Notes: generated by a model not told the origin, from the sequence alone. Numbered from the stretch's first letter, positions 19,957 through 63,135 are shown. The stretch is DNA of 64,000 nt from Bacilli bacterium (GCA_017409905.1 JAFQRV010000022.1:4383-68382); one strand, 5' to 3'. Numbers and translations: made by a program.

Positions 19957-20151
19957 ACTCTTCTCCATTATTTATTTTTTGTTTTTTTTGGTATTTGTTC
20001 TTTTGAAATTTCCATTTTTAAACTAGGTTCTAATTCTGTATCTTTAATAAAAGTTTGTTTTACTCCTCTTAGACCCTGTTTAATCTTTGGTTTTTTATTA
20101 TTCATTTAATCACCCATAATAGTTTATGAGTTATTTATTAAATAAATACAA

Positions 20152-36718: not shown

Positions 36719-38251
36719 TTATCCAATTAACTCATTCAATGCATTTTGATATCTTTCTTGGTTATTGCTTAATATAAATTCTGTTCTTGCACCTTCATTT
36801 AATAAACCTAAATACCAATATTCATACATAAAAGTATTAGTATTTAAATATTGTTCAACTTCATCAATATATTCAAAATATCCATATTTATCAAGGTTTT
36901 CTTCAACACTCATAATGGCATCAACTGATGCTGTTGACTTAATTATTTCACTTAAATATGTTTTATATCTATCTTCTTTTTGAACATCTGAATAATCCAT
37001 AACTGGTGGAAGTCCATTTAAAAAGTCATCAAGAATATTAAATAATACTTTAGAAGTTAAACCATTTTCTCCATTAGAAATATTATTAACTACATAAGTT
37101 GAAATTGGTTTACGAGGAATCTTATATAAAGCTTTTGTTGATGCATCACCATCAGCAGTTGGATAAGGAACAACAGAAATATTCATCTTCTCTTCAATTG
37201 TATTCGCTGGCACAAATCTCATTGTACTTGTTAAATACCATAATTCTCCAGGTTGGAATAATTGATTACCATTAATAAAATCACCACATACAACATTTGG
37301 TGTTAAAGACCACATTTTACTATTTTTAAGTGGTTTTAATCTTTCAATAACTCCTAGTAATTCTTCAGTATAAAAATTCACTTTTTTATTTTCTAAATCA
37401 ACTAGTTTTCCACCTTGTGAAGCAAAAATGCCTTTAATTAGAAATTCATCAAATCCCCCATAACCATACATTTCTGGATCAGTTTCTTTTCTATTTTCAT
37501 CAAATGCTTGTTGAGCTGTTTTTAATAATTCACTAAATGTTGTCCAATCCCATTTACCTTCATTCCATAAAGTTGCAGGATCATCTAAATTATATTCATC
37601 AATTAAATCTTGATTATAATACAAGAAATAATCAGCATGTTCTTCTTCTAAAGAATAACCATAAATTTTATTATTATAATTATTAGCTAATTTGCTTTGT
37701 GAAGCATTATAATTAAAATCTGTAAAAAATCCATTAATTTGTTCCCATAAAGAAGTTTCATCATTATATTGAACATTTTCTAATATTGCTATACTTTCTT
37801 TTTCTGCTAATTGAGAAATCCAACTAGAAGAAACTGCAAAAATGTGACCAGTATTTTTACCTGAGTTATTAATCCATTCAACACGATTAGTTCCCCAAGA
37901 AGCTTCTACAGGAAATCTTTCAATAGAAAGATTAATATTATAAGCATCTTGAATTTCATATAAACGATACAATTTCTCAGATTTTCTTTCACCAATAAAA
38001 TCACCTGCATTAGGGTCTATTTCTTCAGGGTTTCCATGAAATAATTTAATAGTCATCCCTTTTCCATCAAAATTATTTCTGTTATACCGCCACTCCCAAG
38101 TCAATGGATCATCGCATTTCGCTTGATTTCGATCTTCAGAACAAGTTATTGAATTTTCATAGTCATTATCATTTCCATTATTATTTTGGATACAAGATGT
38201 ATTTATGACTAACAACATAAAAAATATAATGATCAATAAATATCTTTTCAT
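36719..38251 (-). CDS. Orphan solute-binding-protein-like lipoprotein, paralogue of the C-terminal half of ORF 28379-31207
   Basis: 510 aa with lipobox VINTSC. Conserved with the paralogue are the Cys pair followed by PLTWEW, FDGKGM.IKL.HG.PEE.DP, NI.LSIE, DPATLWNEGKWDWTTF and VVPYPT.DGDA. The overall composition resembles family-1 sugar ABC binding proteins. Confidence 0.65.
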   Translation of the reverse strand: MKRYLLIIIFFMLLVINTSCIQNNNGNDNDYENSITCSEDRNQAKCDDPLTWEWRYNRNNFDGKGMTIKLFHGNPEEIDPNAGDFIGERKSEKLYRLYEIQDAYNINLSIERFPVEASWGTNRVEWINNSGKNTGHIFAVSSSWISQLAEKESIAILENVQYNDETSLWEQINGFFTDFNYNASQSKLANNYNNKIYGYSLEEEHADYFLYYNQDLIDEYNLDDPATLWNEGKWDWTTFSELLKTAQQAFDENRKETDPEMYGYGGFDEFLIKGIFASQGGKLVDLENKKVNFYTEELLGVIERLKPLKNSKMWSLTPNVVCGDFINGNQLFQPGELWYLTSTMRFVPANTIEEKMNISVVPYPTADGDASTKALYKIPRKPISTYVVNNISNGENGLTSKVLFNILDDFLNGLPPVMDYSDVQKEDRYKTYLSEIIKSTASVDAIMSVEENLDKYGYFEYIDEVEQYLNTNTFMYEYWYLGLLNEGARTEFILSNNQERYQNALNELIG

Positions 38252-44133: not shown

Positions 44134-45258
44134 ATGAGTATAGTTATTAAAGAGGTAGTGGGAAAAAAAGATTTAAAGAAGTTTATTGATTTTCCTAATA
44201 AACTTTATAAAAAAAATGAATACTATGTACCATTCTTATTTAGTGATGAAATGGCTACATTTACTAAAAAATCTAATCCAGCTTATGCCTTTTGTGAAAC
44301 TAAATTATTTTTAGCTTATATTGATAATAAAATAGTTGGTAGAATTGCTGGATTAATTAATAATGCCGCAAACGAAAAATGGGGAACTAATACTATTCGT
44401 TTCACGAGATTTGATTTCATTGATGATTTCGAAGTCTCTAAAGCCCTTATGGATAAAGTAATATCTTGGGGTAAAGAAAGAGGATTTACATCAATTATGG
44501 GTCCTATTGGATTTACTGATTTAGATCATGAAGGAATGTTAGTAGAAGGTTTTGAAGAAATGAATATGTCTATTACTTTCTATAATGCTCCATACTATAT
44601 TGAACATATGCAAAGACTTGGTTTCTTCAAAGAAGTTGACTGGGTTGAATATCAAGTAAGCATCCCACAAGAAACACATGATAAAATTATTAGAGTATCT
44701 GAGCGTATTAAAGAAAGATATGGCTATAAACTTGTTCAATATAAGAGTAGAAAAGTTTTAATGAAAGAAGCTTATACCGCATTTAGTGTAATTGATGAAG
44801 CCTTTTCTAAACTATTTGGAACAGTTCCACTAACACAAGAAATTATTGATAAATCGATTAAAGATTACATTCCAATTGTTAATCTTAAATATATATGTAC
44901 AATTAAAGATAAAGATGATAAGATTGTCGGATTTGGTCTACTTGTACCATCAATCGCAAAAGCTCTTAAAAAATCAAATGGTAGAATGTTCCCATTTGGT
45001 GTATTTAGATTATTAAAAGCTTTACAAGGTAAAAATGATATTTTAGAAATGTTCTTAATCGGTATTAGCCCTGAAGAACAATCTAAAGGTTTACCTGCTA
45101 TTATGCTAGCTGAGCTTGCTAAAATGTGTAAAAAGAACAATATCAAATACTGTGAAACAGGACCTGAGCTTGAAAACAATTTAGCTGTTCAAAGTTTATG
45201 GAAAACATTTGAAACTAGACAACATAAACGTCGTAGATGTTGGAAAAAAGAAATCTAA
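44134..45258 (+). CDS. GNAT-fold acyltransferase family protein (about 370-aa type)
   Basis: 374 aa. The N-terminal IKEVVGKKDLKKFIDFPNKLYKKNEYYVPFLFSDE...IVGRIAGLINNAANEKW matches a widespread family, annotated as GNAT, that I recall from gut anaerobes. No search was run. Confidence 0.5.
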   Translation: MSIVIKEVVGKKDLKKFIDFPNKLYKKNEYYVPFLFSDEMATFTKKSNPAYAFCETKLFLAYIDNKIVGRIAGLINNAANEKWGTNTIRFTRFDFIDDFEVSKALMDKVISWGKERGFTSIMGPIGFTDLDHEGMLVEGFEEMNMSITFYNAPYYIEHMQRLGFFKEVDWVEYQVSIPQETHDKIIRVSERIKERYGYKLVQYKSRKVLMKEAYTAFSVIDEAFSKLFGTVPLTQEIIDKSIKDYIPIVNLKYICTIKDKDDKIVGFGLLVPSIAKALKKSNGRMFPFGVFRLLKALQGKNDILEMFLIGISPEEQSKGLPAIMLAELAKMCKKNNIKYCETGPELENNLAVQSLWKTFETRQHKRRRCWKKEI

Positions 45259-45259
45259 G

Positions 45260-45679
45260 ATGAAAAAAGATTTTAAAGAACTAATTCGTGCTATTAAATT
45301 TACTTTAATTTCGATTAGTGCAGGAATTATCCAAGTAGCATCATATGCTTTAATAAGAATCTTTTCGAAATTCCCTGAAGGCACTTGGCAAGATTATGTT
45401 ATTGCCTATACTCCAAGTTTATTACTTTCAGTAATTTGGAATTTCACAATCAATCGAAAAATCACCTTTAAATCATCTAACAATGTTACAAAATCAATGA
45501 TTTTAGTATTATTATTCTACTTAGTATTTACACCAGTTTCAACTATACTAGGTGGAATTTGTGTAGAACATAATATTAATGCTGATTTAGTGTTTGTTAT
45601 AACTTTAATTCTTAACTTTGTTTTAGAATTCTTATATTGTAGGTTTATTGTCTATAGAAATAGTTGTGATACAAATTAA
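45260..45679 (+). CDS. GtrA family membrane protein
   Basis: The start is set at the ATG at 45260, 1 nt after the upstream stop; the track start at 45209 overlaps the previous gene. The protein has four TM helices and the GtrA motif WNFTINRKITFKS. Confidence 0.75.
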   Translation: MKKDFKELIRAIKFTLISISAGIIQVASYALIRIFSKFPEGTWQDYVIAYTPSLLLSVIWNFTINRKITFKSSNNVTKSMILVLLFYLVFTPVSTILGGICVEHNINADLVFVITLILNFVLEFLYCRFIVYRNSCDTN

Positions 45680-45718: not shown

Positions 45719-46649
45719 ATTTCTTCTTTTTATCTTTATTTCTCTTATCACTAATAATCTTCATTTCTTTTTCAGTTATTAGTGTACAATTATTTTCTTT
45801 TGCCCAATCAACACAACCTTTTAAAACTAATTTTAAGAATGGTCTTGGAACTTTCACAATTGTTAACAAAGCATCATCAGTAAATTTAACTACATCATCA
45901 GCACGATCTGCCGCATATCTAATAGAAGTTAAATCAACTTCTTTATCAGGTATTCCTTCATAATCAGCTTTTTTATATCCAGAACACCAGAAATTTTTTG
46001 AATCTCTATATCCCCAGTTAGTTGGTAGTGGACAGAAATTCTTCTTTGTAACCCCATTAATAATTGCATCATAGTATTTATCTTTCATTAAAATATGATC
46101 AATTTTTAAAATGAAATGCGCACCATATTTTGATGTAATACCATTAAAATTATGATATGGTCCATTATATTCTTCTTGAACTTGATCGTTTTCAGCACCA
46201 TCTAATTCTTTTACCCAAGTACATTCGAATACTTGTAAAGCCTCACTTATTACTTTGGGATATTGATTATCTGGATCATTAGAACAAGATAAACCTTCTT
46301 CTAAATGAAACTTAAATTCTTTCATTTTTTCTTCAGGTGTATCACCAGGGAATCCTAAACGAACATGTTCTTTAAAGATTTTTTTAGAATATGGTAAAAA
46401 GTTAATAGTACATTTACCTGTTCTTAAAATATGTTTTGCGGTATTAGAATTATTTCTTACCTCTAAAACCATCGCATAATAATCTTTACCAGCAATATAA
46501 TATGGAAAACATAAAGAATATGCACCAAAACTAGTGTTTCCCTTTTCATCAAGGGTTCCAATTAAAGTAAGTGGCATTGGAAAAAACGCTGATGATTGAT
46601 AAAAATTATCAACTATTCTTAAATCCTTAAAACTACTCATATAATTCAT
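45717..46649 (-). CDS. Flavin-reductase-like (FMN-binding split-barrel) domain protein with a C-terminal extension
   Basis: 310 aa. FFPMPLTLIGTLDEKGNTSFGAYSL...GKCTINFLP resembles the Flavin_Reduct domain. It overlaps the upstream Wzy_C-like gene by 17 nt. Confidence 0.45.
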   Translation of the reverse strand: MNYMSSFKDLRIVDNFYQSSAFFPMPLTLIGTLDEKGNTSFGAYSLCFPYYIAGKDYYAMVLEVRNNSNTAKHILRTGKCTINFLPYSKKIFKEHVRLGFPGDTPEEKMKEFKFHLEEGLSCSNDPDNQYPKVISEALQVFECTWVKELDGAENDQVQEEYNGPYHNFNGITSKYGAHFILKIDHILMKDKYYDAIINGVTKKNFCPLPTNWGYRDSKNFWCSGYKKADYEGIPDKEVDLTSIRYAADRADDVVKFTDDALLTIVKVPRPFLKLVLKGCVDWAKENNCTLITEKEMKIISDKRNKDKKKK

Positions 46650-48063
46650 CTTCTTTCTTAAAACTTATTTTTTTATATGGTAAACATTCAAAAGCAACAA
46701 ATAAAACTCCATAATGTAAACCAGGTCCAAAATTAAACAATTGACAATCTAATAAACTATTTAGTAAGATTGCACAAATTGAGATTGTAATAAATATTTT
46801 CTCAAGAGTAATCTTCTTAAATAATAAAATAATTGTTTCAATTCTGTGATAACCATAACATAACAATCCAATAATACCAGTACTAGCTAAAAATTGAACA
46901 ATAGTATTATGGTATCTAGGAGCAAGAAAAGCACTTTTATCAAAGTATAATACTGGTGCATAATCAAAGTCATAAAAGCCATTACCTATAAGAGGAGATT
47001 CTTTAAATGATTTTAAACCATTCTTATAAATATTAAATCTTCCACTATCATTAAGCCCTTTATCAGCTAAATCACCAAATACTTCCATCAAGTAATCATT
47101 ACAAGATAAGATAATAATTACAGTAATTATTGTTAATAAAAGTGTTGTAATAACATTATACATTCTTTCTTTTTTCTTAGAGAATATTATTGTAAATAGT
47201 GTACCTATAAAACTTAAAAGTATTCCAACTAAAATAGAATTTCTGCTTTGTGTTAAAATTACAAATCCGACAATAAGACCTGCTAATATATTAAATATCC
47301 AACCATTCTTTTTAGTTGCGGCTAAATAATATACTACACCAATACATGTACAAATTACACCACCTACATTGTTGTATACTCCCCATCCAGTATAAATTTC
47401 TCTTCTATGAAATTCAAGTGCTTCCCAATCAAACATTATATACGAATATAAAGTTTCAACTCCCACACCAAGACCAATAAATAAGAAAACATAAGCTAAA
47501 TAGTCTAATTTCATTTTATCCCAATCAACAGTATAAAATAAATAGAAATAACATACACACAAAGTAAACCCAACTAATAAACCATACAATACAGTTCTTA
47601 AACTATAATCATCAGTAAAAACTCCGCCAAGCATCATACCAAGAGTAAGTAGTACAAAACCAATAAGTAATTTTGGCTTACGATTAATCTTACGATATTT
47701 TAAATCCATAATTAATCTTAAAGTTAAACCGACCAATAGAATTAAACCAATAATAATCATATTAATTAAAAAAGTTTTACTTGTTAATATTGATTCTTTA
47801 TTGTAAATTGGAGTTTCATTTTTAGAAACAGTCATATATCCAGTACATATTAATGGAATTGTTGGAAACATGTCATCACAAAAAAACATTATACAAAGTC
47901 CTAACACTGTATAAATATAATATGTTAATATTTCCAATCCAAAAAGGAAAGAAACTAACATTAATACTACGGATAATACAATAAAATAAATAGATTTTAA
48001 AAACTTGTTAAACAAATTAATTATTTTATTATTACTAAAGTTAGGTATCCAATAATTTAACAT
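46633..48063 (-). CDS. O-antigen ligase/polymerase-like (Wzy_C domain) polytopic membrane protein
   Basis: 476 aa with about 12 TM helices, the loop motif LTQSRNSILVGILL, and a periplasmic-type loop typical of the Wzy_C/O-antigen-ligase family. Confidence 0.55.
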   Translation of the reverse strand: MLNYWIPNFSNNKIINLFNKFLKSIYFIVLSVVLMLVSFLFGLEILTYYIYTVLGLCIMFFCDDMFPTIPLICTGYMTVSKNETPIYNKESILTSKTFLINMIIIGLILLVGLTLRLIMDLKYRKINRKPKLLIGFVLLTLGMMLGGVFTDDYSLRTVLYGLLVGFTLCVCYFYLFYTVDWDKMKLDYLAYVFLFIGLGVGVETLYSYIMFDWEALEFHRREIYTGWGVYNNVGGVICTCIGVVYYLAATKKNGWIFNILAGLIVGFVILTQSRNSILVGILLSFIGTLFTIIFSKKKERMYNVITTLLLTIITVIIILSCNDYLMEVFGDLADKGLNDSGRFNIYKNGLKSFKESPLIGNGFYDFDYAPVLYFDKSAFLAPRYHNTIVQFLASTGIIGLLCYGYHRIETIILLFKKITLEKIFITISICAILLNSLLDCQLFNFGPGLHYGVLFVAFECLPYKKISFKKEDELYE

Positions 48064-48136: not shown

Positions 48137-48173
48137 AAAAAAGACATAATAAGGTAATACCTTTATTATGTCT
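48137..48173 (-). terminator. Rho-independent terminator after the giant gene
   Basis: The stem AGACATAATAA..GG/CC..TTATTATGTCT is followed by UUUUUUAAUU on the minus strand, 17 nt after the stop. Confidence 0.7.
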
Positions 48174-48189
48174 TTTATTTTTTAGATGA

Positions 48190-51100
48190 CTATTCTAAAT
48201 CTTCCAAAGGAATTGTAATAGCGTATTCTAAAGCGTCTCCATAAATAGTAGGAACAAATGTTAATCTAATATCATACATTTCATCTGTTAATTCACTAAC
48301 GTTAATTCTGTTTAAAATGTCTTGTTCATTTGTAGAAACAGCCTTAGCTAAAGCGCTTTTAACATCTGCTAAACTAAATTTAATATATCTTCCAGTAGTA
48401 AGCATTGAAACTTTAACTTCATCTAATGGTAATTGGTTATCAATTGTACTTCCTTCAACATTTTCAACTAGGTATTCATCTTTAACAACAATTGAAACAA
48501 CAATTTGATATTCTTTGTATCCATAAGGATTATAATAACCTACAATAATAGAGTCACTATCAGAATCCATATCACTACAATCTTCCAATGTAACATTACC
48601 GTTTGCACCATTAGAGTTTTCGATACCACATCTATTACAATAGTAGTAATCGCCATTCCAATAGAAATTATGTTCATAAGGAACAACTTTATATTCATGA
48701 GAATACTTAGTATTTTCACATACAGAACATAATAAAGCAAATAGACCAGTACCTGATTGTGTACATGTTGGATATACTATTGTACCATAATATCTTTCTA
48801 ATCTACAACAAGAATGTTCATCTGTAGATATCTTACCATTATAATTTTGAGTTTCTACAACATGACATGTTGGAGTAAATGTATATTCTCTACAAATTTC
48901 ATAGAAATAATCTTCATATCCATATTCTTCTTTTACATCATTTGTATATGAATGAACTTCTTTATCATAAGTTGTATATTGATATCCCTTATAATAAATA
49001 TATTTTTGATGAGAATGAACTGTTTTGAAAATTACTTCATTCTTAGAAATATTACGAATAATGTCATATCCTTTTTCTTCAAATTCTAAAACTTGTCCTT
49101 CTTCATCATAAATAGTCTTTGAATAATAATCACAATTTTCACAATTTGATACTTCTTCAAGACCATCATCGGAAGTTTCTGAAACTAATTCATGTTTCCA
49201 GGCATTATAATATCTTCTAACATAAGTTTCTCCACAAATAGTACATGTACCAATTTCTTCATAATATTTATAGCATGGAATGTTTGTATTGTACTCAACT
49301 AATTCATATTCATAAGAATGATTAGTACCTGTAAATTGAACAAATTCATAATCCGGTTCTCTACCCTCAATTTCTTCAAGAGTCTCACAGTTTACATATA
49401 AATCACAATATTCTACATATTCACAACCATCATAAATTCTATAGTAATGAGCAATTATCTTAACAAAACATTGTGGTTCTGTAACAGCACACTTATAAAG
49501 ATAATAACTACCATCACTTTGTAAAGGTTTACAATCAATGTCTCCATATTCTTCATTTAATCCAGCAAATGAAACTACTTCTCCACATGCACATCCTGAA
49601 ACAACTATTTGTTCACCACAGATTGCGAATTCTTCATCCAAATCTATATATTGTTCATATGTATAATGATATTGATGAACTGTATAAGAATTTCTATCTC
49701 CACATTCAGAGCATACTTGAACTTCCCTTACACCATCTTCACAATTACCATATGGATTTACTAATTCATATTTAAATTCATAATTATGTGATTCATAAGA
49801 GCGTACTTTTAATGAAACTAATTCTTCATACTCATGTGTTTCAACATCATAATTAATAAATAAATCAGCATATTGATAAACATGACAATTTTTATGTTCT
49901 TCTCTTATAACATATTTAATACATAATCCTGTTGAATATTCATATATTAATAAATTGCCTTCATCATCCCAACGTTCTTCATATCCAAAGTTATAGCGAA
50001 GACCATTACTGTAATATCCACATGGACAACCATATTGATAAATTTGACCATTAACTCCGTATTTTGATAAATCTAAATAACTAACATATCCTTCACAATG
50101 ATAATAAGCATCATATTCATCCTCTATTTTATTACAGTTTTGACAAATTTCTACAACTCTTACACCATCATAACAATCATTAGATTCTGGCATTAATTCT
50201 ACAAACCTTCTAGTATAATGATTTGAATAAATTGAGCAATATTCATCTAAAGTACCTAATTCAACCTCACCATTATAATATTTAACAGTACGGAATTCTA
50301 CAACTAAACAATCAGCACAAGTTGCATAACCTGTAGTATAAACAATAGATATATTACCTGTTTCATCTGTTACAGTTTCAACCCTTAATTCAAATGTTGT
50401 TAGATCAAAACTATAATCCCAATAATTATACTCATTTACAAAGTTTTTATAAGCTTCAAATGCAGCAGTTGCATCAATTTGATTATCATAGTATTCTCTT
50501 GACTGATTTTGTAATTCAAATCCTACTTCTGAATACTCGAAACCGCTGTTTCCACATGGACAACCATATTTTTGAATATATGCTTCACTACCATATTGTT
50601 CAAATCTAATTGCATCTAATTCTATAGAAATACAATCATATTCTTTAGTCTTTAAAATGTAATCACATTCTTCACATTGACGAGAAACATACATACCATT
50701 TGAATGATTTTTGCCATTAATAAATTGATATCCAATAATATCACCAAATGAGTGTGCACATGTAATAAATGTTTGTTCAAATGATAAGTTTTTATTTACT
50801 ACATATTTAGATTCATTTTTATCATAATAACCAAATTCGATAATTAAAGTAGATTTCTTATTACATTCATCATATTCATCGAAAACAGCATAACGGAAGC
50901 ATAATCCATCTATAGTTGATCTATAGTAATCAATGTATTCATCTCTTTCTTCATCATAACTGTATTCATGAGAGAATTCATCACTATAATCAACACTTAA
51001 ATCATAACCACAAGCACATCCATTAACATAAATAATACCTGTACTATTACTCATTTCACTAATTTTACCAGCATCAATCACAGCAATGTGTCCATATTCA

Positions 51101-54100
51101 TGGTAGAATGAGTGCTCAGCAGATTCTTCATTGATTGCACCACAATCTGAACATTTTCTAATACTAAAGCATCCTTCATCACAACTTGCAGAACCTTCTA
51201 TTAATCCTACATAGTTTTCCCAAGAATGACTTTCTATAATCTCTTCTGTAACTTCAACATCTACAACAGCACCATTGAAATAGTACTTTTGTGTAGTAAT
51301 TCTCTTTTGGTGACATTCATCAACTGTAATATATTCACTACTAGCTTCACCAATTATAAAATCACAATCATAACATTTATAACCATAAACGTACTCATCA
51401 TTTATATATCCTGAATAATAACTCATATTAGCTTTGTTATAATCATCATAATTATACTTTCTTTCACCACATGGACATTCATATGTGTAATAATATGCAT
51501 GAGTGCAACCATATTCTTCAAAAGAACGTACTTGTTTTGAAAGTTCATAATGCCAATCGTATTCAGAAGTATATGAATAATCACAGAACTTACAAGTGTA
51601 AATTACTTTAACGCCTTCTTCACAATTTTCTTCTTCAGTTAAGAATTCGTATTCATACTCATATTTATGTCTTGCATATTCAGAAGTATGAATCTTATAT
51701 TCATATTCTCCACTGTAACTATAACTATCGAAGTTAATATATAAAATATATTCATTCTTTTCAAGACATCCTTCTGTTGTGCTATGATCCATTAAACCAA
51801 CTGTTACACCATCAACAGTTGCAGCATAACTATCATTTGGATTTCCTTGTGGTTGCATATGATAATCAAGACTAATTAATTTTTCACCAAAAATATAAAC
51901 CATTTCAGGTTCATAAGTATTGTGTGTTTCTTCTTGATGAATACAACAACCTTGACGATATACTTTATAATCTGAACCATATTCTTTTAAATCATGAATT
52001 ACTGAATAGTAAGAATAATAACCATATTCTTTATGTGGACAGTCATATAATACTTCTTCTCCAAGAATCTCATGACAATTTCTACACATTTTAGTAACTT
52101 TTACGCCTTCTTCACAAGTTGATGCGCCTTCAATTAATTCACCAAAATAGATTATATTATGATTTTCTTGTTCTTCAACAACTTTTACTTCTTTTACTAT
52201 AACATCACCAAATGATACTAAGAAGCTAACAGTTGTTATTGAATTACAATTATTATAAGGATTAGCTGACATATAATTTCTATCAGTTACTATAGTTAAA
52301 TTACATTTACTACATTTATATGTCTCATTTTCCCCTTCGTAATGCCAACCACCATCAACAACAAAATCAATACCATTATAAGAGCATGCGCAATTACGCA
52401 TTTCAACAGTGTGTTCACATTCTCCATCAAATTCTGATACATCAATTATTTCCATATATTTCATATGAGAATAATTAGTAGGCATTTCAAATGAATGATT
52501 ACAATCTGAACAAGTTAATGTAGTATCAACACCAGAATAACAATCTTTTGTTTCAGATAAAAATTCATGTGTTGGCACATATGTATGTTCTTTTACTGCA
52601 TATGTAATATATTCAAAACCACATCTATCACAAATATAATATTGTTTTGCGACACTTCCACATTTTTCTGGTGTGATTGATCTAGTTTCATCTAAAACAT
52701 ATTTATGTTCACAATTGTAGAAATCATCTACATAAATAGTATTAAATGTGTAATATTCACTATCATATTCTCCATGATAATCATAATCTTCATCTACTTC
52801 TTCAGTCTTAACTAAATCACCAGTATAGTAATCATAATATGTTTTTTCTATTTTTTCTTCAGATATATATTTACTTTCAAAAACATATGAAACATATTCA
52901 TTGCCGTCCTCAGTTGCAATTAAAATTCCATAATTTTCTAAGAAGTTGTAATATTTTGAAGAATAAGTTCTATTATATTCAACTCTATATAAATAATATT
53001 TACCAGTTTCAGGGTCATATTCTCCTTCAACATCTGTATAAACACTACTATCAGTATAACCTTCTACAAGAACTGATTTTCCTTCTAATTCATCATAATA
53101 ATATTCTTTATTATCAATTATAGAATTTAAATCATATTCTTCTACTTTCTTCATTACATTCTTCTTAGCTGTAGTGTAATCAATATATGAATTATAATCG
53201 TTTGTTAAATTAACTTTAAGATTACAATTATCAACATTCTTAACAACGATTTCAATATTATTTAAATAACTTGATTTACTAATGCTAATGTTTACACCAA
53301 AATATTTATCTAAAATATGAACGATAGCATCGAATTCATCTTTATCAATACCTTCTCCCTCAGCAAATGAAACGCCTGTAATTTCCTCAATAAAGGAATC
53401 AATACTGTCTTTTATTTCATCTTCAGAATCACCTGATAATTTAGAAACAAATGATACGAAAGTATATTCTTTTAATTTTTCACGATTAATTACTGCTGAT
53501 AAACCATAAACATCTTTAATGAATTCATATAATGATTTATATTCGCCTTCAGAAACTAATTCAACTAATTCATTTACTTTATCTTCAATTTCACTAAATT
53601 TAGTTCCAAAAGTTTCAAATTTATCTAATAAATCGCCAAGAGTCATTGTCTTAAGATCTTCGATAAATTTCATTATATCTCTACCTAATAATTCATCTAC
53701 TGGAGTATATAATAAATCAGTTAGAATTAATTCAAATGCGTTTTCTTTGCTACTGAATATATATTCTTTATCAGTTTCTTCCAATTCAAAGTAACTTGCA
53801 AAAATCTTTTGTACTAATTCAGCAACAAAATCTTGACTTAATAAGTTTTCTGCGATTTTCTTAATAGTAGGACCAAACTTCTTAAGTTCTTTAATAGCTT
53901 GTGCTGCATAGAAAATCTCATTATCATATCTATGTTCTTCAGCATTAGAATTAAATAATAAATTTAATGGAATATAGATAACTTCTGGATAATCATCATT
54001 AATTAATTTTTCAATATTATTAAATAATACATATAAATTATTATCTTCAATTAAAGCATATGCTTCTACTTCAACTTCTTGGTTTGCACCAGTATTGAAA

Positions 54101-56802
54101 ATAACACTAGCATATGCATATCCTTCTACTACATCTTCACTATCTAAATTTACATGTACTTCTAATTTACCAATTCTATTAAATAAATAGAACAATTCCA
54201 TTTCGCCCATTTCTTCAGCAATTAAATACTTCCAACTTTCAGGAACTGTTACATTTTCCATATGAATAGTAATGTCAGTATCAACTAAATTAGTAGCAAA
54301 ATCACTAAAGAATTCTTTTCCTAAAGTTTCAATTCCACAAATAGTACATGCAAATTCGTCGAATTGGTGTCCAAGAGCATCAACAAAATTACTCTTCTTT
54401 TCAAATTGACAAATACTACATACGTCTTTTGTATAACCTTTTTCTGTACATGTTGGTTCAACAGTTGATGTATTAAAGTTGTGATCACAACCAGTACCAC
54501 AAACAGAACATACACCATTAACTATTGTATGGTTAGTTGTCTTTTCTTCACCAACAACATTACATATTACACAATACTTAGCTTCTGCACAAGTTGCAGC
54601 TTCAATATTCCAAGTATGAGCTTCATCAACATATGTATCAATATAATTATCATCACAATTTGAACATTGATGTAATGTATAACCTTTTTCTGTACATGTA
54701 GGTTCTACTACTATTTCTTGATATTTATGACCTGTTGCTTTAGCATGATTATCTGTTTTTTCATATTCACAAACAGTACACTTAGATGTACGATATCCAT
54801 CAGTTGTACATGTAACTTTAACAATTGTTATTTCAAATGTATGAGGTTTTTGTTTTTCATACTTTGTAATTTCTTTGTCACAGTTTTCATTTGTACATTC
54901 ATGAATTGTATAACCAGATTCTTTACATGTTGCATCTTTTTGTTCTTTTAATTCATAATTATGGCCTAATGGTTTAATATATTCGATATCTTTATATTCA
55001 CATTTAGCACATTCTTTTTCTACATAGCCTCTTGCTTCACAAGTAGGTTCTACTCTTGTAGATATAAATGTATGCCCTGTAGCTTTTTCAATATCACTGA
55101 TTTGTGATTCACCACATCTACTACAAATTGAAAGTTTGTAGCCATCTGCAGTACAAGTTTTTTCATAGACTTTTTCTGTGAACCAGTGACCATATAATTT
55201 ACAACGATCAGCAGCTGATAATCTAATTACAGAGTAGTAAGAGAAGTGACTAGTTTCAAAAGTGGCTGTACCATTTGAATAACTTGCAGGAATAGATTCA
55301 ACTTCACCCAAATCGTTAATATACCAAATTGCTATAGATTCTGGATCTTCTCCAGGAGCTAATTCGTAAGGAACTGTTACTGTTACAACACCATTAAATT
55401 CAGTTACATTACTACCATCTTGTTCCATTAAGAAATTATAAATCTTGTTATCACCAAGAGCTTCTTTTTTATCTTCCGGTAATGAATTTACAATTTCATC
55501 TCTATATTCATTTTCAACAGTGTCAGCAGTTAATGTAATATCAGAACTACCTAAATTATCGATTGTATCATTATCTAATTTAATAGTAGCATTTTTTAAA
55601 GCAACTTCGTTAGAAGCTAAAATATCTTTACTTAGTTCAGTAGAAACTTCAGTTTTCGCTAAAACAATTGTTTTAGTTTCATGGCAATGTTCACATTCAT
55701 ATTCCTTCACATTTCCACTTGATGAAGAATTAATTTCAACAAAGTTATGTGCATTGGCATTTGAATATGGCTTATCATATTCATTGTTACAATCTTGACA
55801 TTCAAAATGATATGTACCTTCATGGCTACATGTAGCTAATACACCAATAGAAGTTACATAATTGTGTTTCTCAACAATTTCTTTCTTTTCTACCATTTGG
55901 TTACATAGTTTACAGAAACCTTTATAAATTTCTTCTGCTTGACAAGTCTTATTAGCAAGTGCTTGAGTAGAAACAAAAGTCCATTTAGAAACGTTATGAC
56001 CAGTAGATGTAACAGTAATATTACGATATTGATCACCACATTCACTACATTCATATACTTCGAATCCATCTTCACTACAAGTAACTAAAGAAGTATTAAC
56101 TAAAACATAATTATGTTCTAATTTTTCATTTTCTACAGAACAAATTAAGCAAGTTTGACCGTTTTCACAAGTTGCTTTAGGACTATCCCAACTATGGCCC
56201 AACGGTTCTACTTCAATAACTTCATTATAATCACATAGAGAACAAGTAACGTTAGTAATACCAGCAGTTAAACAACCTGCTTCTTTTACAACTTCTTCTT
56301 TGTGATCATGTCTCATATTAGTTTCTTGACCACATTCGCATATTCCTCTATGCCAATTATTATCAACATTTACATAAGTGTAATTGTGAGCTAATCTTTC
56401 TCCAAATTGTTTTTTACATACAGAACAAATTGCTTTGCTTGAACAAGTTGCAGGAGTTCCTTCAACGTGTCCTTTTGCAAGAACGACTTTTTCTTCAGTA
56501 TATTCACAAACTGTACATGTATATAAAGTTCTTCCATCTTCTACACATGTTGGATTACTAATAACTACACCTTCATTCCAATTATGTTCTTCTAACATAG
56601 GAATTGTTTCTTTACGTACTTCATCACAACCAGTACAGTGATATGTAATAACACCTTCACTCATACATGTTGCATTAGTTGTAATTGTACCTTGATCCCA
56701 GGTATGAGTATTATGGCGTAATAAAACGATACCTAATACAGCACCAACAATTACGACTAATGATGAAATACCAATAATTAAAAATTTAATGGATTTTTTC
56801 AT
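48190..56802 (-). CDS. Giant membrane-anchored, Cys/His-repeat surface protein (about 2870 aa); no family recognised
   Basis: A single ORF. The likely start is MKKSIKF at 56802 (RBS AAAGGA 9 nt upstream); the track start at 56820 would be almost leaderless. It has an N-terminal signal-anchor, FLIIGISSLVVIVGAVLGIVLL. About 19 short H-x(8-12)-C-x(7-10)-C-x2-C units fall in two blocks. A beta-sandwich-like domain ends HFSYYSVI. Next comes a Cys-free helical and acidic region of about 500 aa. After that come seven or eight larger Cys/Tyr-rich modules with a recurring GC(P/A)CG motif. Confidence 0.85.
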   Translation of the reverse strand: MKKSIKFLIIGISSLVVIVGAVLGIVLLRHNTHTWDQGTITTNATCMSEGVITYHCTGCDEVRKETIPMLEEHNWNEGVVISNPTCVEDGRTLYTCTVCEYTEEKVVLAKGHVEGTPATCSSKAICSVCKKQFGERLAHNYTYVNVDNNWHRGICECGQETNMRHDHKEEVVKEAGCLTAGITNVTCSLCDYNEVIEVEPLGHSWDSPKATCENGQTCLICSVENEKLEHNYVLVNTSLVTCSEDGFEVYECSECGDQYRNITVTSTGHNVSKWTFVSTQALANKTCQAEEIYKGFCKLCNQMVEKKEIVEKHNYVTSIGVLATCSHEGTYHFECQDCNNEYDKPYSNANAHNFVEINSSSSGNVKEYECEHCHETKTIVLAKTEVSTELSKDILASNEVALKNATIKLDNDTIDNLGSSDITLTADTVENEYRDEIVNSLPEDKKEALGDNKIYNFLMEQDGSNVTEFNGVVTVTVPYELAPGEDPESIAIWYINDLGEVESIPASYSNGTATFETSHFSYYSVIRLSAADRCKLYGHWFTEKVYEKTCTADGYKLSICSRCGESQISDIEKATGHTFISTRVEPTCEARGYVEKECAKCEYKDIEYIKPLGHNYELKEQKDATCKESGYTIHECTNENCDKEITKYEKQKPHTFEITIVKVTCTTDGYRTSKCTVCEYEKTDNHAKATGHKYQEIVVEPTCTEKGYTLHQCSNCDDNYIDTYVDEAHTWNIEAATCAEAKYCVICNVVGEEKTTNHTIVNGVCSVCGTGCDHNFNTSTVEPTCTEKGYTKDVCSICQFEKKSNFVDALGHQFDEFACTICGIETLGKEFFSDFATNLVDTDITIHMENVTVPESWKYLIAEEMGEMELFYLFNRIGKLEVHVNLDSEDVVEGYAYASVIFNTGANQEVEVEAYALIEDNNLYVLFNNIEKLINDDYPEVIYIPLNLLFNSNAEEHRYDNEIFYAAQAIKELKKFGPTIKKIAENLLSQDFVAELVQKIFASYFELEETDKEYIFSSKENAFELILTDLLYTPVDELLGRDIMKFIEDLKTMTLGDLLDKFETFGTKFSEIEDKVNELVELVSEGEYKSLYEFIKDVYGLSAVINREKLKEYTFVSFVSKLSGDSEDEIKDSIDSFIEEITGVSFAEGEGIDKDEFDAIVHILDKYFGVNISISKSSYLNNIEIVVKNVDNCNLKVNLTNDYNSYIDYTTAKKNVMKKVEEYDLNSIIDNKEYYYDELEGKSVLVEGYTDSSVYTDVEGEYDPETGKYYLYRVEYNRTYSSKYYNFLENYGILIATEDGNEYVSYVFESKYISEEKIEKTYYDYYTGDLVKTEEVDEDYDYHGEYDSEYYTFNTIYVDDFYNCEHKYVLDETRSITPEKCGSVAKQYYICDRCGFEYITYAVKEHTYVPTHEFLSETKDCYSGVDTTLTCSDCNHSFEMPTNYSHMKYMEIIDVSEFDGECEHTVEMRNCACSYNGIDFVVDGGWHYEGENETYKCSKCNLTIVTDRNYMSANPYNNCNSITTVSFLVSFGDVIVKEVKVVEEQENHNIIYFGELIEGASTCEEGVKVTKMCRNCHEILGEEVLYDCPHKEYGYYSYYSVIHDLKEYGSDYKVYRQGCCIHQEETHNTYEPEMVYIFGEKLISLDYHMQPQGNPNDSYAATVDGVTVGLMDHSTTEGCLEKNEYILYINFDSYSYSGEYEYKIHTSEYARHKYEYEYEFLTEEENCEEGVKVIYTCKFCDYSYTSEYDWHYELSKQVRSFEEYGCTHAYYYTYECPCGERKYNYDDYNKANMSYYSGYINDEYVYGYKCYDCDFIIGEASSEYITVDECHQKRITTQKYYFNGAVVDVEVTEEIIESHSWENYVGLIEGSASCDEGCFSIRKCSDCGAINEESAEHSFYHEYGHIAVIDAGKISEMSNSTGIIYVNGCACGYDLSVDYSDEFSHEYSYDEERDEYIDYYRSTIDGLCFRYAVFDEYDECNKKSTLIIEFGYYDKNESKYVVNKNLSFEQTFITCAHSFGDIIGYQFINGKNHSNGMYVSRQCEECDYILKTKEYDCISIELDAIRFEQYGSEAYIQKYGCPCGNSGFEYSEVGFELQNQSREYYDNQIDATAAFEAYKNFVNEYNYWDYSFDLTTFELRVETVTDETGNISIVYTTGYATCADCLVVEFRTVKYYNGEVELGTLDEYCSIYSNHYTRRFVELMPESNDCYDGVRVVEICQNCNKIEDEYDAYYHCEGYVSYLDLSKYGVNGQIYQYGCPCGYYSNGLRYNFGYEERWDDEGNLLIYEYSTGLCIKYVIREEHKNCHVYQYADLFINYDVETHEYEELVSLKVRSYESHNYEFKYELVNPYGNCEDGVREVQVCSECGDRNSYTVHQYHYTYEQYIDLDEEFAICGEQIVVSGCACGEVVSFAGLNEEYGDIDCKPLQSDGSYYLYKCAVTEPQCFVKIIAHYYRIYDGCEYVEYCDLYVNCETLEEIEGREPDYEFVQFTGTNHSYEYELVEYNTNIPCYKYYEEIGTCTICGETYVRRYYNAWKHELVSETSDDGLEEVSNCENCDYYSKTIYDEEGQVLEFEEKGYDIIRNISKNEVIFKTVHSHQKYIYYKGYQYTTYDKEVHSYTNDVKEEYGYEDYFYEICREYTFTPTCHVVETQNYNGKISTDEHSCCRLERYYGTIVYPTCTQSGTGLFALLCSVCENTKYSHEYKVVPYEHNFYWNGDYYYCNRCGIENSNGANGNVTLEDCSDMDSDSDSIIVGYYNPYGYKEYQIVVSIVVKDEYLVENVEGSTIDNQLPLDEVKVSMLTTGRYIKFSLADVKSALAKAVSTNEQDILNRINVSELTDEMYDIRLTFVPTIYGDALEYAITIPLEDLE

Positions 56803-56834
56803 TTCTCTAATTCCTTTCATTTGAAATTCACATT

Positions 56835-56863
56835 ATTATACCTCATTTTAAAATTTTTTTCAA
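56835..56863 (-). promoter_or_regulatory. Candidate sigma-A promoter for the giant gene
   Basis: The minus strand reads TTGAAA-17 nt-TATAAT, ending 14 nt before the first ATG (56820) and 32 nt before the preferred ATG (56802). Confidence 0.5.
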
Positions 56864-56894: not shown

Positions 56895-56924
56895 CAAAAA
56901 AAGAATTAGATATTTCTAATTCTT
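56895..56924 (-). terminator. Rho-independent terminator after the S58 peptidase gene
   Basis: The stem AGAATTAGA/TCTAATTCT is followed by U7 on the minus strand. Confidence 0.7.
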
Positions 56925-56953
56925 TTGTTTTTACCAAGTAATAATTTCCTACT

Positions 56954-59915: not shown

Positions 59916-61670
59916 CTATCTCATTATATAATATAAGGAATACCAATCTTTTCTATCAATTGCATATCTACTTTTCTTCATTATTTCAATTGAATAATTA
60001 AGTTCTGTTCTTTCAAAAATCTCAGTAATTCTTAATTTAAGTATTTTTTCTTTAAAGTCATCAATTAATTTATTTCTATTTGGATAATCCATTTCTAATC
60101 TAACTAAATATAAATATTCAATTGATATTAATAATCTTTCAACTCTTTCTTTATTGGTAGTAAACTCTAATGCTTTATTAAGTAGTCTAAATGATTCTTG
60201 AATAATCTCTTCATTAAACATTTCATGATCAGCATTATCGTATAACCACATGTTATAATTTCTTACATGTTTTTCCCATAAATAGATATATTCTAAAACA
60301 TATTTGCTTGCAACATCTCCATAATAATAAAAGCAAAATTCTTCTATAATCTCATTAACACTTTTCGCATCATCTCTTAATAATCTTGCGGTTAAATAGG
60401 ATTTTAATTCATCAAGATAACCACCTCCACCATATGAGAAGTTTCCTTGCATTAATACTCCTTTAACATTGTTTTTACGATATAAGCTGATGTTTTTTGC
60501 TATTACAAATAAATTAGGAAAAGGCAGCAAATAATTTCTAAAATTAACAGCATAATCCCAAATATATAATCTATTAGTAATTTTACTCCAATTTATTAAA
60601 TCATTATAAAACTTTGCTGTTTCACAAGTGCCATCAATACTCGTTAATTCTTCAATAGATTTTGACCAAGAGCATTCAATATTGCATAATCGAACAATTA
60701 CATTATTATGGGGTTTAACTTTAGTTGGAGCTTTTCTAGAATATTGATAAGCAAATGTATGAATTAATTTATCTGGAAATTCTTTTTGTAATTCTTCAAC
60801 GATTCTATTAACAAAAGTAATAATTGATCCACTTTGAGAATTATTTTCATCATCAATCTTTTTACAATTTTCACATTCACAAGCCATCTTAATAAAATGG
60901 CCCATCCATTCATCTTGTGCAACAGAAAAAATTTTACAATCGGGATTATTTTTAATCCAACTTCTTATTTTTTCCAAACACAAATTAAAAACTTCTTCAT
61001 TTGATAAACAAAGTTCTGTATGTTCTTTTCTTCTCTTATCGTCAATTAGCGAAAAATATTCAGGATGTTCTTCAAAGTATTCGTTAGGATTTATTAAATC
61101 AGAAAATGAATGATGAAAATTATACCACTTAACCTTATTACCATGAATAGCCCCTAAGTTTGCTAAATTACTGTTTAACATATTTTTAGAAGCAAAATTA
61201 GCATCAAATGCATTTCTAAAATATACTTCACGATATTCAAATGAAAAATCTTGAATAAGTAAATAGTCTTTTTTAATTGATAATGAATCTAACTTGTCAA
61301 CCTTTTCACAGTCTTTTGTAAAACATCTAAAACCAACAAATTCCTCTAAAAACTTATATACAGCATATAATATAGCCCTTGAAGAATTTCCTGTTATAAT
61401 TATATCATTATCTTTTTCTATTATTAAAAAAGCTTCTTCGCTTTTTCCTATTAACTTACTTAATTCATTATTATTTCTTGCTCTTCCTATTATAATTTCC
61501 GGACCTCTTTTTAAACATTTGTCAGAAAAAATAGGGATAGGAAACTCTAAAGACTCATATAAATATTTTTGAAGTTCACTACAAGCATAACGTTCACATT
61601 CCGTTGAATTGACACTATGAACAATATGATAGTTTGTTTTTTTATTATCAACAATACTAATTACATTCAT
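59916..61670 (-). CDS. DUF4838-like glycoside-hydrolase-related protein (cytoplasmic)
   Basis: 584 aa with no signal peptide. The N-terminal YHIVHSV...ACSELQKYLYESLEFPIPIF...IIIGR and FEYREVYFRNAF match the remembered DUF4838 pattern. Confidence 0.5.
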   Translation of the reverse strand: MNVISIVDNKKTNYHIVHSVNSTECERYACSELQKYLYESLEFPIPIFSDKCLKRGPEIIIGRARNNNELSKLIGKSEEAFLIIEKDNDIIITGNSSRAILYAVYKFLEEFVGFRCFTKDCEKVDKLDSLSIKKDYLLIQDFSFEYREVYFRNAFDANFASKNMLNSNLANLGAIHGNKVKWYNFHHSFSDLINPNEYFEEHPEYFSLIDDKRRKEHTELCLSNEEVFNLCLEKIRSWIKNNPDCKIFSVAQDEWMGHFIKMACECENCKKIDDENNSQSGSIITFVNRIVEELQKEFPDKLIHTFAYQYSRKAPTKVKPHNNVIVRLCNIECSWSKSIEELTSIDGTCETAKFYNDLINWSKITNRLYIWDYAVNFRNYLLPFPNLFVIAKNISLYRKNNVKGVLMQGNFSYGGGGYLDELKSYLTARLLRDDAKSVNEIIEEFCFYYYGDVASKYVLEYIYLWEKHVRNYNMWLYDNADHEMFNEEIIQESFRLLNKALEFTTNKERVERLLISIEYLYLVRLEMDYPNRNKLIDDFKEKILKLRITEIFERTELNYSIEIMKKSRYAIDRKDWYSLYYIMR

Positions 61671-61749: not shown

Positions 61750-63135
61750 TTAGTTTAATTTTTCAAAATTGACTGAAATAGTCCAGCTTCTTCCACCATA
61801 TCCTTTATATTCATTTGCGAGTGAATTAATTTTGCTCATTGTACCTTGTTTAAACTCTTCTCTTATACTATTTAAGTATCTTTCAACTTCATTCATATCT
61901 TGACGAATTGCATATTCATCTGGACGACCATTATATAAATAGCATGATTGATCAACTTTAATCTTATAAGTTATACGATATCTACATGTTCCAAAATAAC
62001 ATGCATCAACTATTACTTGCACAATTTGTAAATCAATTCCTTGTCCGATATGTTTACCATATGCACTTTGTGAATGCATATATGATTTTAAATTAGAACA
62101 TTCTAATAGTTCAGATTTAAGATTTGCACCACTACTAACAGTTGATGTAGATGAATTAGAATAGTTATTAGAAGATGATGAACTTGTTCCTAACTTTCTT
62201 CTATAAGGTGCACTCGCTACATAGAATGGTAAACCTTTAAAGATAGCATATAATACAAATCCAGCTAATATTATTACAAGTAAGATTACTAATAAAACTT
62301 TAGACACATTTAATAATAAACCAGCTAACAACGATAATACAACCGTACATCCAAAAGCGATTGCTGGTAAAAATTTGCTACTGCTTTCAGGAATATTACC
62401 AAGTTCAATAAATACCATGTAAAAGAATAAATAACCAAATAAACCAACATAAACATATGCTTGATATACTGATTTTAAATATCCTTCTTCTAAACTTCCA
62501 AATGTTTGAACACAAGCAATTATTGAATAAACAACAGCGGCTAGAACCATTAAACCAAATACAATGTTTTTAATAATACAACCAACACGATGTTCTTTAT
62601 GTTCAAAATCTAGAATATCCCATAAAATATGACATACTATTACAACTACTAAACAACCAACATTTGTTACATATACATATGTCAAATCTTTTAAAGCATT
62701 GATGGATAATAAAAACATTAAGCCGCAAGCCGCAACACCAACAACAAAAGCCCAAAAGAAACGATTTACTGATAATAAATCAAATCCAGTATATCTTCTT
62801 AACACTCCTGTTGAAAAACCCCAAATATAAGCAAATAAACCGATACCTTCAAAAATCATATGTAAAGGATAAATAATTAACTTAATAAATCCCCAGGCAT
62901 CACTCAATTCAGGAATTATCGCTGTTTCTTTATAAACTGTAAATTTTGCTATCAATATGTATACTAGTGCAATAACATAATAAATTCCAATACTAGATAA
63001 GTATGCGGTAAATTCTGCACTTTTTTTGGCTAAGTTAACAATTACTAATATAAAACTTACTACATATGCTACATATGCTAATGCTATTAACCACATATAT
63101 AACATTCTTAATATATTTTTTGTTTTAACTGACAT
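61750..63135 (-). CDS. Hypothetical polytopic membrane protein with a Ser-rich linker and a C-terminal soluble domain
   Basis: 461 aa with about 10 TM helices, then GTSSSSSNNYSNSSTSTVSSG, then a 120-aa Cys-containing domain. I recognised no family. Confidence 0.5.
   Translation of the reverse strand: MSVKTKNILRMLYMWLIALAYVAYVVSFILVIVNLAKKSAEFTAYLSSIGIYYVIALVYILIAKFTVYKETAIIPELSDAWGFIKLIIYPLHMIFEGIGLFAYIWGFSTGVLRRYTGFDLLSVNRFFWAFVVGVAACGLMFLLSINALKDLTYVYVTNVGCLVVVIVCHILWDILDFEHKEHRVGCIIKNIVFGLMVLAAVVYSIIACVQTFGSLEEGYLKSVYQAYVYVGLFGYLFFYMVFIELGNIPESSSKFLPAIAFGCTVVLSLLAGLLLNVSKVLLVILLVIILAGFVLYAIFKGLPFYVASAPYRRKLGTSSSSSNNYSNSSTSTVSSGANLKSELLECSNLKSYMHSQSAYGKHIGQGIDLQIVQVIVDACYFGTCRYRITYKIKVDQSCYLYNGRPDEYAIRQDMNEVERYLNSIREEFKQGTMSKINSLANEYKGYGGRSWTISVNFEKLN

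Follow-up and report, generated by a model that had tools for sequence, protein, structure and literature searches.

A giant Cys-rich protein of a Bacilli bacterium in which arrays of a His-Cys3 repeat, probably metal-binding, flank a predicted self-cleaving domain

What kind of structure is built by a giant bacterial protein in which one His and three Cys recur in unit after unit is the question raised by a locus from a metagenome-assembled genome (MAG) labelled “Bacilli bacterium” (GCA_017409905.1 JAFQRV010000022.1:4383-68382; this whole stretch of 64,000 nucleotides is called the window below). The gene under study is an open reading frame (ORF) on the minus strand, at 48190..56820, which encodes 2,876 amino acids (aa), and its product is identical to NCBI MBQ2891897.1, present there in the longer 2876-aa form and annotated as a hypothetical protein; two further proteins encoded in the window, SecA and FtsZ, come from this MAG as well. 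An earlier note on this DNA had given the same coordinates, strand and length, which we confirm, and had proposed that the repeats make a metal-loaded rigid stalk or adhesin, a metal sponge, or a redox-active surface structure. The first of these is the best functional reading, and we consider it rather probable that the protein is a zinc-stiffened, membrane-tethered giant surface fibre, with a distal part of ~2,350 aa that is held non-covalently and can be shed. The “Gram-positive” host named in the same note is loosely backed by the label of the MAG. The ORF divides as follows:

48190..56820, minus strand: whole ORF, 2876 aa, or 2870 aa when read from the second ATG at 56802
56719..56784, minus strand: N-terminal hydrophobic helix, aa 13-34, FLIIGISSLVVIVGAVLGIVLL, with the look of a signal anchor and with neither a lipobox nor an AxA site
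55666..56715, minus strand: array A, aa 36-385, with 10 predicted Cys3His-type sites and 28 Cys
55204..55665, minus strand: probable MAIN/GAIN-like beta-sandwich, aa 386-539, Cys-free, recognized from an AlphaFold2 model, Foldseek and invariant residues
55240..55248, minus strand: predicted autoproteolytic site H525-F526-S527, with cleavage between F and S, proposed from invariance, turn position and analogy to YfkN
54331..55203, minus strand: array B, aa 540-830, with 9 predicted Cys3His sites, the first including C540 and the last the half-unit H818..C825xxC828
52681..54330, minus strand: nearly Cys-free region, aa 831-1380, rich in E/L/K/D and then in Tyr, with no family match
48601..52680, minus strand: C-terminal Cys/Tyr-rich modules, aa 1381-2740, of ~145-165 aa or longer each
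48193..48600, minus strand: conserved C-terminal domain, aa 2741-2876, defined by alignment and ending ..DYAIT

Detailed examination of the protein showed that chance does not account for its repeat pattern. About 19 units in two blocks had been reported, and 19 is the number that we count, comprising 11 canonical long units and 8 short or variant ones, in blocks whose coordinates proved exact (aa 39-385, i.e., nucleotides (nt) 56706-55666, and aa 545-835, i.e., nt 55188-54316), the unit quoted as an example being aa 79-117; 7 further canonical units stand at the heads of the C-terminal modules. The canonical long unit, H-x-[YWF]-x6-8-[AP]-T-C-x3-G-x5-C-x2-C, is matched 13 times as a regular expression vs 0.026 times across 1000 shuffles, and CxxC occurs 32 times vs 6.1 +/- 2.2 in shuffles. 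The 2876-aa protein contains 137 Cys (4.76%, vs a mean of 1.33% over the 46 other ORFs of the window), a lower number than the 150-200 estimated by eye, together with 81 His, 274 Tyr and 340 Glu.

The arithmetic of one His and three Cys per unit holds everywhere, and these residues are nearly invariant while the other His vary: across 25 orthologs, conservation at aligned positions is about 0.8-1.0 for the motif His and Cys and 0.08-0.5 for the non-motif His. For example, a full-length ortholog with 34% identity (P0002) keeps 54 of the 54 Cys of the head (28 of 28 in array A and 26 of 26 in aa 541-830), C540 as well, and 61 of the 79 Cys in the C-terminal modules. Among 2,013 near-full units, the His is present in 99.5%, the turn-1 Cys (the lone Cys of the TCxxxG turn) in 92%, the Gly in 95%, and the two CxxC cysteines in 100% and 95.5%.

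The earlier note had suggested a repeat hidden Markov model (HMM) and a search of metagenomic proteins, and these revealed a very large family. Our first homolog search returned >623 giant proteins, mostly of 1,600-5,000 aa, with occasional Pfam partners (SLH, Big_2, dockerin/cohesin, LRR, CBM26 and Flg_new), and the iterated unit HMM identified 3,135 units in 121 proteins, with up to 80 per protein. Against 1.84 billion metagenomic representatives, the profile of array B matched 58,464 protein clusters at E<=1e-3 and 11,986 at E<=1e-30. The earlier note had recognized no named domain family in this repeat, and this stands for Pfam, NCBIfam and PDB sequences: in Pfam and NCBIfam scans of the whole protein the arrays match no model at E<=1, scans of five sub-regions gave nothing above threshold, and PDB sequence searches with the whole protein, array B, the central domain and the C-terminal domain gave no informative match, the marginal hits being to C2H2 proteins. 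A scan of genome contigs with the whole protein found no relative, and a literature search found no description of this repeat. Tens of thousands of giant surface proteins from gut and rumen Firmicutes carry the repeat, and a curated model, which it lacks, would provide annotation for a large block of metagenomic dark matter. We dismissed as noise the weak Pfam matches to CBM_35 (E 0.08-0.13, outside the repeat blocks; 0.13 on the whole protein), zf_UBZ and zf-tcix. A separate observation is that the model of array B matches BFVD A0A8S5QLF9 at E 4e-18, an entry named “S-layer homology domain (Fragment)” and assigned to Podoviridae sp. ctdRZ1 from a gut virome contig; this means either that phages have arrays of this kind or that the contig is bacterial or the flank of a prophage.

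The earlier note had drawn each four-ligand site as contained in one unit. Our analysis of strand topology, of the ligand ledger and of unit statistics suggests that it is probably shared between adjacent units, i.e., composed of the turn-1 Cys of unit i and the His and CxxC of unit i+1. An AlphaFold2 model of array B (aa 538-835, from a 19-sequence alignment and with no ions modelled) has a mean predicted local distance difference test (pLDDT) score of 87.7 and three strands per unit, in the order His, strand 1, turn 1 (the lone Cys, TCxxxG), strand 2, turn 2 (CxxCG), strand 3 and a G-H linker. Since a strand of 6-7 residues separates turn 1 from turn 2 in this model and places them at opposite ends, one unit could not close a four-ligand site alone, and since the His of the next unit adjoins turn 1, the natural site would be turn-1 Cys(i) + His(i+1) + CxxC(i+1). 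A Foldseek search of the PDB with this nine-site model gave a best E of 5.8e-3 with a template-modelling (TM) score of 0.1, and its beta-propeller and Ig matches were spurious. The ledger of array B, 27 Cys and 9 His, amounts to exactly 9 sites, and it closes exactly only in the shifted register, where C540, which is invariant in orthologs and an orphan in the intra-unit register, would complete the first site. At the other end, the last array-B unit, H818..C825xxC828, has no turn-1 Cys and would cap the array, and array A ends alike with H358..C376xxC379.

Register statistics drawn from ~3,000 units of 120 proteins comprised three tests, with large effects that all favour the inter-unit register. 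The turn-1 Cys is missing from 51% of array-terminal units vs 1.5% of initial and 1.8% of internal units (p=6e-111; per-protein sign test, 47 vs 9), although here and below the p-values overstate independence, because the units share ancestry both inside one protein and from protein to protein. The terminal units are not generally degenerate, since they keep the turn-1 Gly and the second CxxC Cys. Array-initial units carry extra Cys upstream of the His, at -2 in 9.4% and at -5 in 14.9%, vs 1.8% and 0.2% of internal units. Where three units follow one another, a missing turn-1 Cys goes together with a missing His in the next unit (odds ratio 7, p=1.6e-4), and in 0 of 70 cases with a missing His in its own unit.

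These results make it unlikely that the 38-aa units are zinc knuckles or ribbons independent of one another, each closed by its own His, turn-1 Cys and CxxC and strung with the others like beads. Such a bead would explain why each unit has exactly one His and three Cys, and a weak HMM similarity to independent C2H2 finger arrays in PDB sequences (E 9e-4) also speaks for it. However, the two turns are separated by the length of a strand, the invariant C540 would be left unused, the last units at 358 and 818 would be one ligand short, and independent units do not predict that loss of the turn-1 Cys is confined to terminal units, that initial units have an extra upstream Cys, or that co-loss involves the next unit's His and not their own.

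Between the two blocks, which the earlier note had mapped correctly, lies a conserved, Cys-free domain with an invariant HFS that it had overlooked, and the presence of this MAIN/GAIN-like domain changes the expected working of the whole protein. Alignments by BLAST to nearly all of the 120 listed homologs cover this region (aa 386-539), with H525, F526, S527 and Y529 invariant in 22 of 22 aligned sequences that are 33-61% identical to the window's domain, and with HFS present in 81 of 82 domain matches. Our AlphaFold2 model of the domain (pLDDT 93.4, predicted TM score (pTM) 0.87) is a beta-sandwich in which the HFS occupies the turn before the last strand, between model strands 135-142 and 145-150. 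Using Foldseek against the PDB, we identified ankyrin ZU5 domains (4d8o, E 1.6e-3, prob 1.0, TMq 0.51; 3kbt, TMq 0.56), the GAIN domain of CD97 (9mqr_A, prob 0.99), and the FIIND domains of NLRP1 (7crw_A, prob 0.92) and CARD8 (7jn7_B).

MAIN (Microbial Autoproteolysis INducing) domains are the microbial counterparts of GAIN_B and are enriched in Bacillota; they have a conserved HFS and are cleaved between F and S, a position mapped by Edman sequencing in B. subtilis YfkN, and the products stay associated, for which the authors propose release of surface proteins by shear (Brogan & Rudner, bioRxiv 10.64898/2026.05.12.724683, May 2026). The usual order in virtually all of these proteins is signal peptide, cargo, MAIN and C-terminal anchor (10.64898/2026.05.12.724683). 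The central domain of the window protein is a new, topologically inverted member of this family and, by analogy with its tested members, a probable self-cleaving latch. In common with them it has a beta-sandwich near ZU5, GAIN and FIIND and an invariant HFS before the last strand, within a large, secreted, surface-tethered Bacillota protein; unlike them, its anchor is N-terminal, the last strand would leave with 2,350 aa of distal cargo, and a Cys3His array adjoins the domain on either side. The main text of the preprint makes no mention of cysteine or zinc, and its DPAM tables contain a few architectures joining zinc-ribbons_6 to ZU5, in which the elements beside ZU5 are labelled YfgJ-like/zinc-ribbons_6 (10.64898/2026.05.12.724683).

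The inverted order is shared by the sub-family. Among 81 family members, a hydrophobic segment at the N-terminus is present in 72, a lipobox-like motif in 58 and an LPXTG motif or a C-terminal transmembrane helix in none, and the window protein itself has no LPXTG, SLH or C-terminal transmembrane helix. The median start of the domain is aa 423, and 1,200-3,000 aa follow it. The central-domain profile also matches, at 9e-31, a 285-aa fragment from ENA (P0262) in which a linker and then a C-terminal transmembrane helix come after the domain, i.e., the canonical order, and this fragment links the inverted sub-family to ordinary MAIN proteins. Only 11 of 143 array-rich representatives contain the central domain; the repeat is thus of general use as a building block, and proteins of the kind described here are one sub-family of those that use it.

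It is improbable, in our estimate, that the central domain is a plain, non-cleaving ZU5-like sandwich that leaves the protein a single covalent chain, i.e., a plain adhesin or stalk. The non-cleaving ankyrin ZU5 domains are indeed its best Foldseek matches, with modest E-values, and its domain order is inverted relative to the MAIN proteins that have been tested; but the invariance of H, F and S across sequences with 33-61% identity to the window's domain, the identity of this tripeptide with the cleavage site of YfkN, its position in the last beta-turn, where GAIN and MAIN domains have theirs, and the GAIN (CD97) and FIIND structures among the matches all argue for the self-cleaving latch.

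The Cys3His sites probably hold a structural metal, most plausibly Zn(II), whose identity and occupancy we infer from the ligands. In 53 replacements of the turn-1 Cys, the new residue is Glu in 23, His in 7 and Asp in 2 (32 of 53), and such replacements, together with three Cys per unit, therefore favour metal over disulfides. Other variants keep four ligands, for example H36-x2-H39, H171-x-H173 and C778-x-H780 in the window protein and C-x-H at the array starts of orthologs. That the cysteines are instead in disulfides or unbonded, with no metal, in a disulfide-braced extracellular beta-hairpin module is very unlikely. Extracytoplasmic Cys-rich repeats are disulfide-bonded in many organisms; here, however, the number of Cys per unit is odd, the His is as invariant as the Cys (99.5%), the Cys is replaced mainly by Glu, His or Asp, the C-x-H or H-x-H variants still provide four ligands, and the hosts look like strict gut anaerobes, judging from sample names and from neighbours such as a glycoside hydrolase of family GH9.

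We give almost no credence to a metal sponge or storage protein, or to an extracellular redox or electron-transfer structure, both unsupported here despite the many potential thiolate ligands and two CxxCH motifs (aa 376-380 and 1579-1583), as only 2 of 32 CxxC are of this form, the ligands occupy set positions in a regular beta-scaffold and show the conservation of structural residues, Pfam and NCBIfam contain no cytochrome or Fe-S family match, and the partner domains of the homologs are adhesion and cell-wall modules (SLH, Big_2, LRR, dockerin and CBM). A multihaem c-type cytochrome was rejected on the same count of His after CxxC and the absence of a cytochrome family match. A recurrent variant unit, “H..W....H.R.C..C”, is found in P0197, P0199 and P0208 and at aa 145-173 of the window protein, and has two His and CxxC without a turn-1 Cys. 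It is followed by “DC.YGEW”, in which a Cys replaces the His of the next unit, so that the four-ligand count is kept and the chemistry is changed.

Taken together, these features suggest the following working of the protein as a zinc-stiffened, sheddable fibre. The single N-terminal transmembrane helix proposed earlier is present as one hydrophobic helix at aa 13-34, which looks like a signal anchor, the N-termini of orthologs being lipobox-like or hydrophobic; it would tether the fibre to the membrane. Each ~38-aa unit would be a three-strand beta-meander, every junction would hold one Cys3His site, occupied most likely by Zn(II), and repeats clasped one to the next in this way, through the 10 sites of array A and the 9 of array B, would make a stiff rod, the 10 clasped junctions of array A forming the proximal stalk. 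By analogy with tested MAIN proteins, the central domain would cleave itself between F526 and S527. The N-fragment, i.e., the helix, array A and most of the sandwich, would remain membrane-bound, and the last strand, SYYSVIRL, would stay inserted in the sandwich, followed by a short helix with C540 that completes the first array-B site. The C-fragment of ~2,350 aa would then be held only by this inserted strand, non-covalently, and tension at its distal end could pull the strand out and shed the fibre.

This C-fragment would consist of array B, the nearly Cys-free region, seven or more Cys/Tyr-rich modules and the conserved C-terminal domain. The nearly Cys-free region is common to about 27-42 of 120 homologs. 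Each C-terminal module opens with a His-Cys3 unit (7 in total), followed by C-x-H..CxC and CxxC..C motifs; these local motifs, C-x-H-x6-7-C-x-C and CxxC-x16-18-C(H), again sum to 3 Cys and 1 His and may form further sites of the Cys3His type. The C-terminal domain (aa 2741-2876), which has no PDB or Pfam match beyond the sub-threshold CBM_35, is a possible distal binding tip, and Pfam and PDB-sequence searches with the cargo regions matched no family or structure.

Several points weigh against this account. In addition to the shared descent of the units, 49% of terminal units retain the turn-1 Cys, the upstream Cys is present in just 28% of array-initial units, and the inter-unit geometry is deduced from strand topology and statistics. 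The Foldseek E-values of the central domain are weak (1.6e-3 to 0.2) and its top matches, the ankyrin ZU5 domains, are non-cleaving; with anchor N-terminal and cargo C-terminal, the order is inverted vs MAIN proteins, and retention and release of the cargo are proposed by analogy. The N-terminal helix may be a signal peptide that is cleaved off, and the protein would then have no anchor. Finally, the ratio of non-synonymous to synonymous polymorphism (pN/pS) described below, 0.71 overall and 0.87 in the cargo, could reflect relaxed constraint and not surface diversification.

More tentatively, and as a proposal that falls somewhat short of probable, we suggest that the repeat defines a large, uncurated class of extracellular zinc-clasped beta-meander rods, with at least 58,000 protein clusters and up to 80 units per protein, in which every site is shared by two neighbouring repeats and the metal is the inter-repeat joint, here combined with an inverted GAIN-like latch that sheds a fibre of 2,000-3,000 aa under force. 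The inter-repeat clasp stands a real chance of being a new structural principle. If the clasps are real, they would be an unusual way to build a rigid extracellular rod, with a sizeable extracellular zinc demand of roughly 20-80 ions per molecule, and the arrays would correspond, in anaerobes and with thiolate ligands, to the adhesin stalks that Ca2+ stiffens. The inverted MAIN domain would extend autoproteolytic release to N-terminally tethered proteins, with the cargo carrying off the strand equivalent to the “Stachel”, and provides a testable model for the shedding of giant fibres.

Comparison with known systems helps to place the arrays. Giant (RTX) adhesins and cadherins have BIg or cadherin repeats of ~100 aa with Ca2+ at the inter-domain junctions, bound by carboxylate ligands. 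The likeness is that a junction metal would turn a flexible chain into a rod projecting a distal binding region, but the repeat of the window protein has 38 aa, thiolate and imidazole ligands, another fold and another metal, with no homology. Zinc ribbons and knuckles are rubredoxin-like small Zn folds (classification, e.g., Krishna, Majumdar & Grishin 2003). Our repeat resembles them in that beta-hairpins are tipped by CxxC(G) and (P/A)TCxxxG turns, in the four ligands predicted per site, and in being a small fold that has little hydrophobic core. It differs in having no Pfam zinc-ribbon match even at E<=1, in its Cys3His ligands, its extracytoplasmic location and its arrays of up to 80 units, and in that both knuckles of one site appear to come from adjacent repeats, linking the chain. 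In DnaJ/Hsp40, four CxxCxGxG repeats pair into two Zn sites within one cytoplasmic hairpin domain; these sites, too, are built from CxxC-type repeats and are not self-contained, whereas the window repeat would donate to its neighbour along an open-ended extracellular array. Eukaryotic C2H2 arrays are the sole PDB sequence matches to the array profile and share the spacing “G-x3-Y-x-C-x2-C ... H”, but the modelled repeat has a strand and not a helix after CxxC, Cys3His and not Cys2His2 ligands, and one His per unit, and the resemblance is probably convergence. With these differences and HMM matches that are marginal, a C2H2 beta-beta-alpha finger does not fit the repeat.

The gene itself is intact. 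The earlier note had held that decay to a pseudogene in relatives would speak against its reading; a 96%-identical copy (P0001), on an ENA metagenome contig with the same gene neighbourhood, shows no frameshift and no stop across 2,870 codons. This relative begins at M7, i.e., at the second ATG (nt 56802), which has a better Shine-Dalgarno-like sequence, AAAGGA, upstream, and no obvious ribosome-binding site is present upstream of the first ATG (56820); the true start is therefore likely to be the second ATG. Comparison with this copy gave a pN/pS of 0.71 overall, 0.28-0.50 in the head and 0.82-0.87 in the cargo (aa 831-2740), vs 0.03-0.29 in six neighbouring genes, and the C-terminal 136 aa show 0 non-synonymous and 3 synonymous differences. 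The distal part thus evolves fast, a pattern typical of exposed surface proteins that relaxed constraint fits too. Gains and losses of Cys are also seen in the cargo, e.g., C2242Y, C2643S and S2699C.

The promoter and terminator with which the gene had been credited were both found, at the following positions:

56835..56863, minus strand: sigma-70-like promoter match, TTGAAA-17-TATAAT, 11/12, the top match in the region
48139..48176, minus strand: likely terminator, a 16-bp palindromic hairpin with T-runs on both strands, past the stop

Promoter-like matches are not enriched in this region (72 vs 71.9 in shuffles; the DNA is 27% G+C), and the pair of promoter and hairpin is therefore compatible with a monocistronic unit but does not establish one. 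The hairpin and T-run of the upstream gene lie at ~56895-56926. The terminator hairpin at 48139-48176 is a near-perfect palindrome with A/T runs on either side, and could stop transcription from both directions.

Immediately downstream, at 46633-48063 (minus strand), is a gene for a Wzy_C/O-antigen-ligase-like membrane protein with its own promoter-like site. Its adjacency to the giant gene is kept in the 96% relative and absent at the locus of the 34% ortholog, where FtsW/RodA, MurG and MurB follow. Four other minus-strand genes in the window encode likely secreted proteins that act on glycans or lipids: one with Flg_new repeats and a GDSL lipase (18544-19968), a 942-aa protein with a hyaluronate-lyase N-terminal beta domain (28379-31207), a GH9 enzyme with CelD_N (39030-41342), and a DUF4838 protein with a GH67N-like N-terminus (59916-61670). 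Two further minus-strand ORFs, of 510 aa (36719-38251) and 461 aa (61750-63135), have no Pfam match, and the 461-aa ORF is under strong purifying selection vs the relative (pN/pS 0.03). The only plus-strand genes near the locus are at 44134-45258 and 45209-45679; one of this pair is GNAT-like, and its partner, an ORF of 156 aa that overlaps it, is annotated as weakly GtrA-like in the relative.

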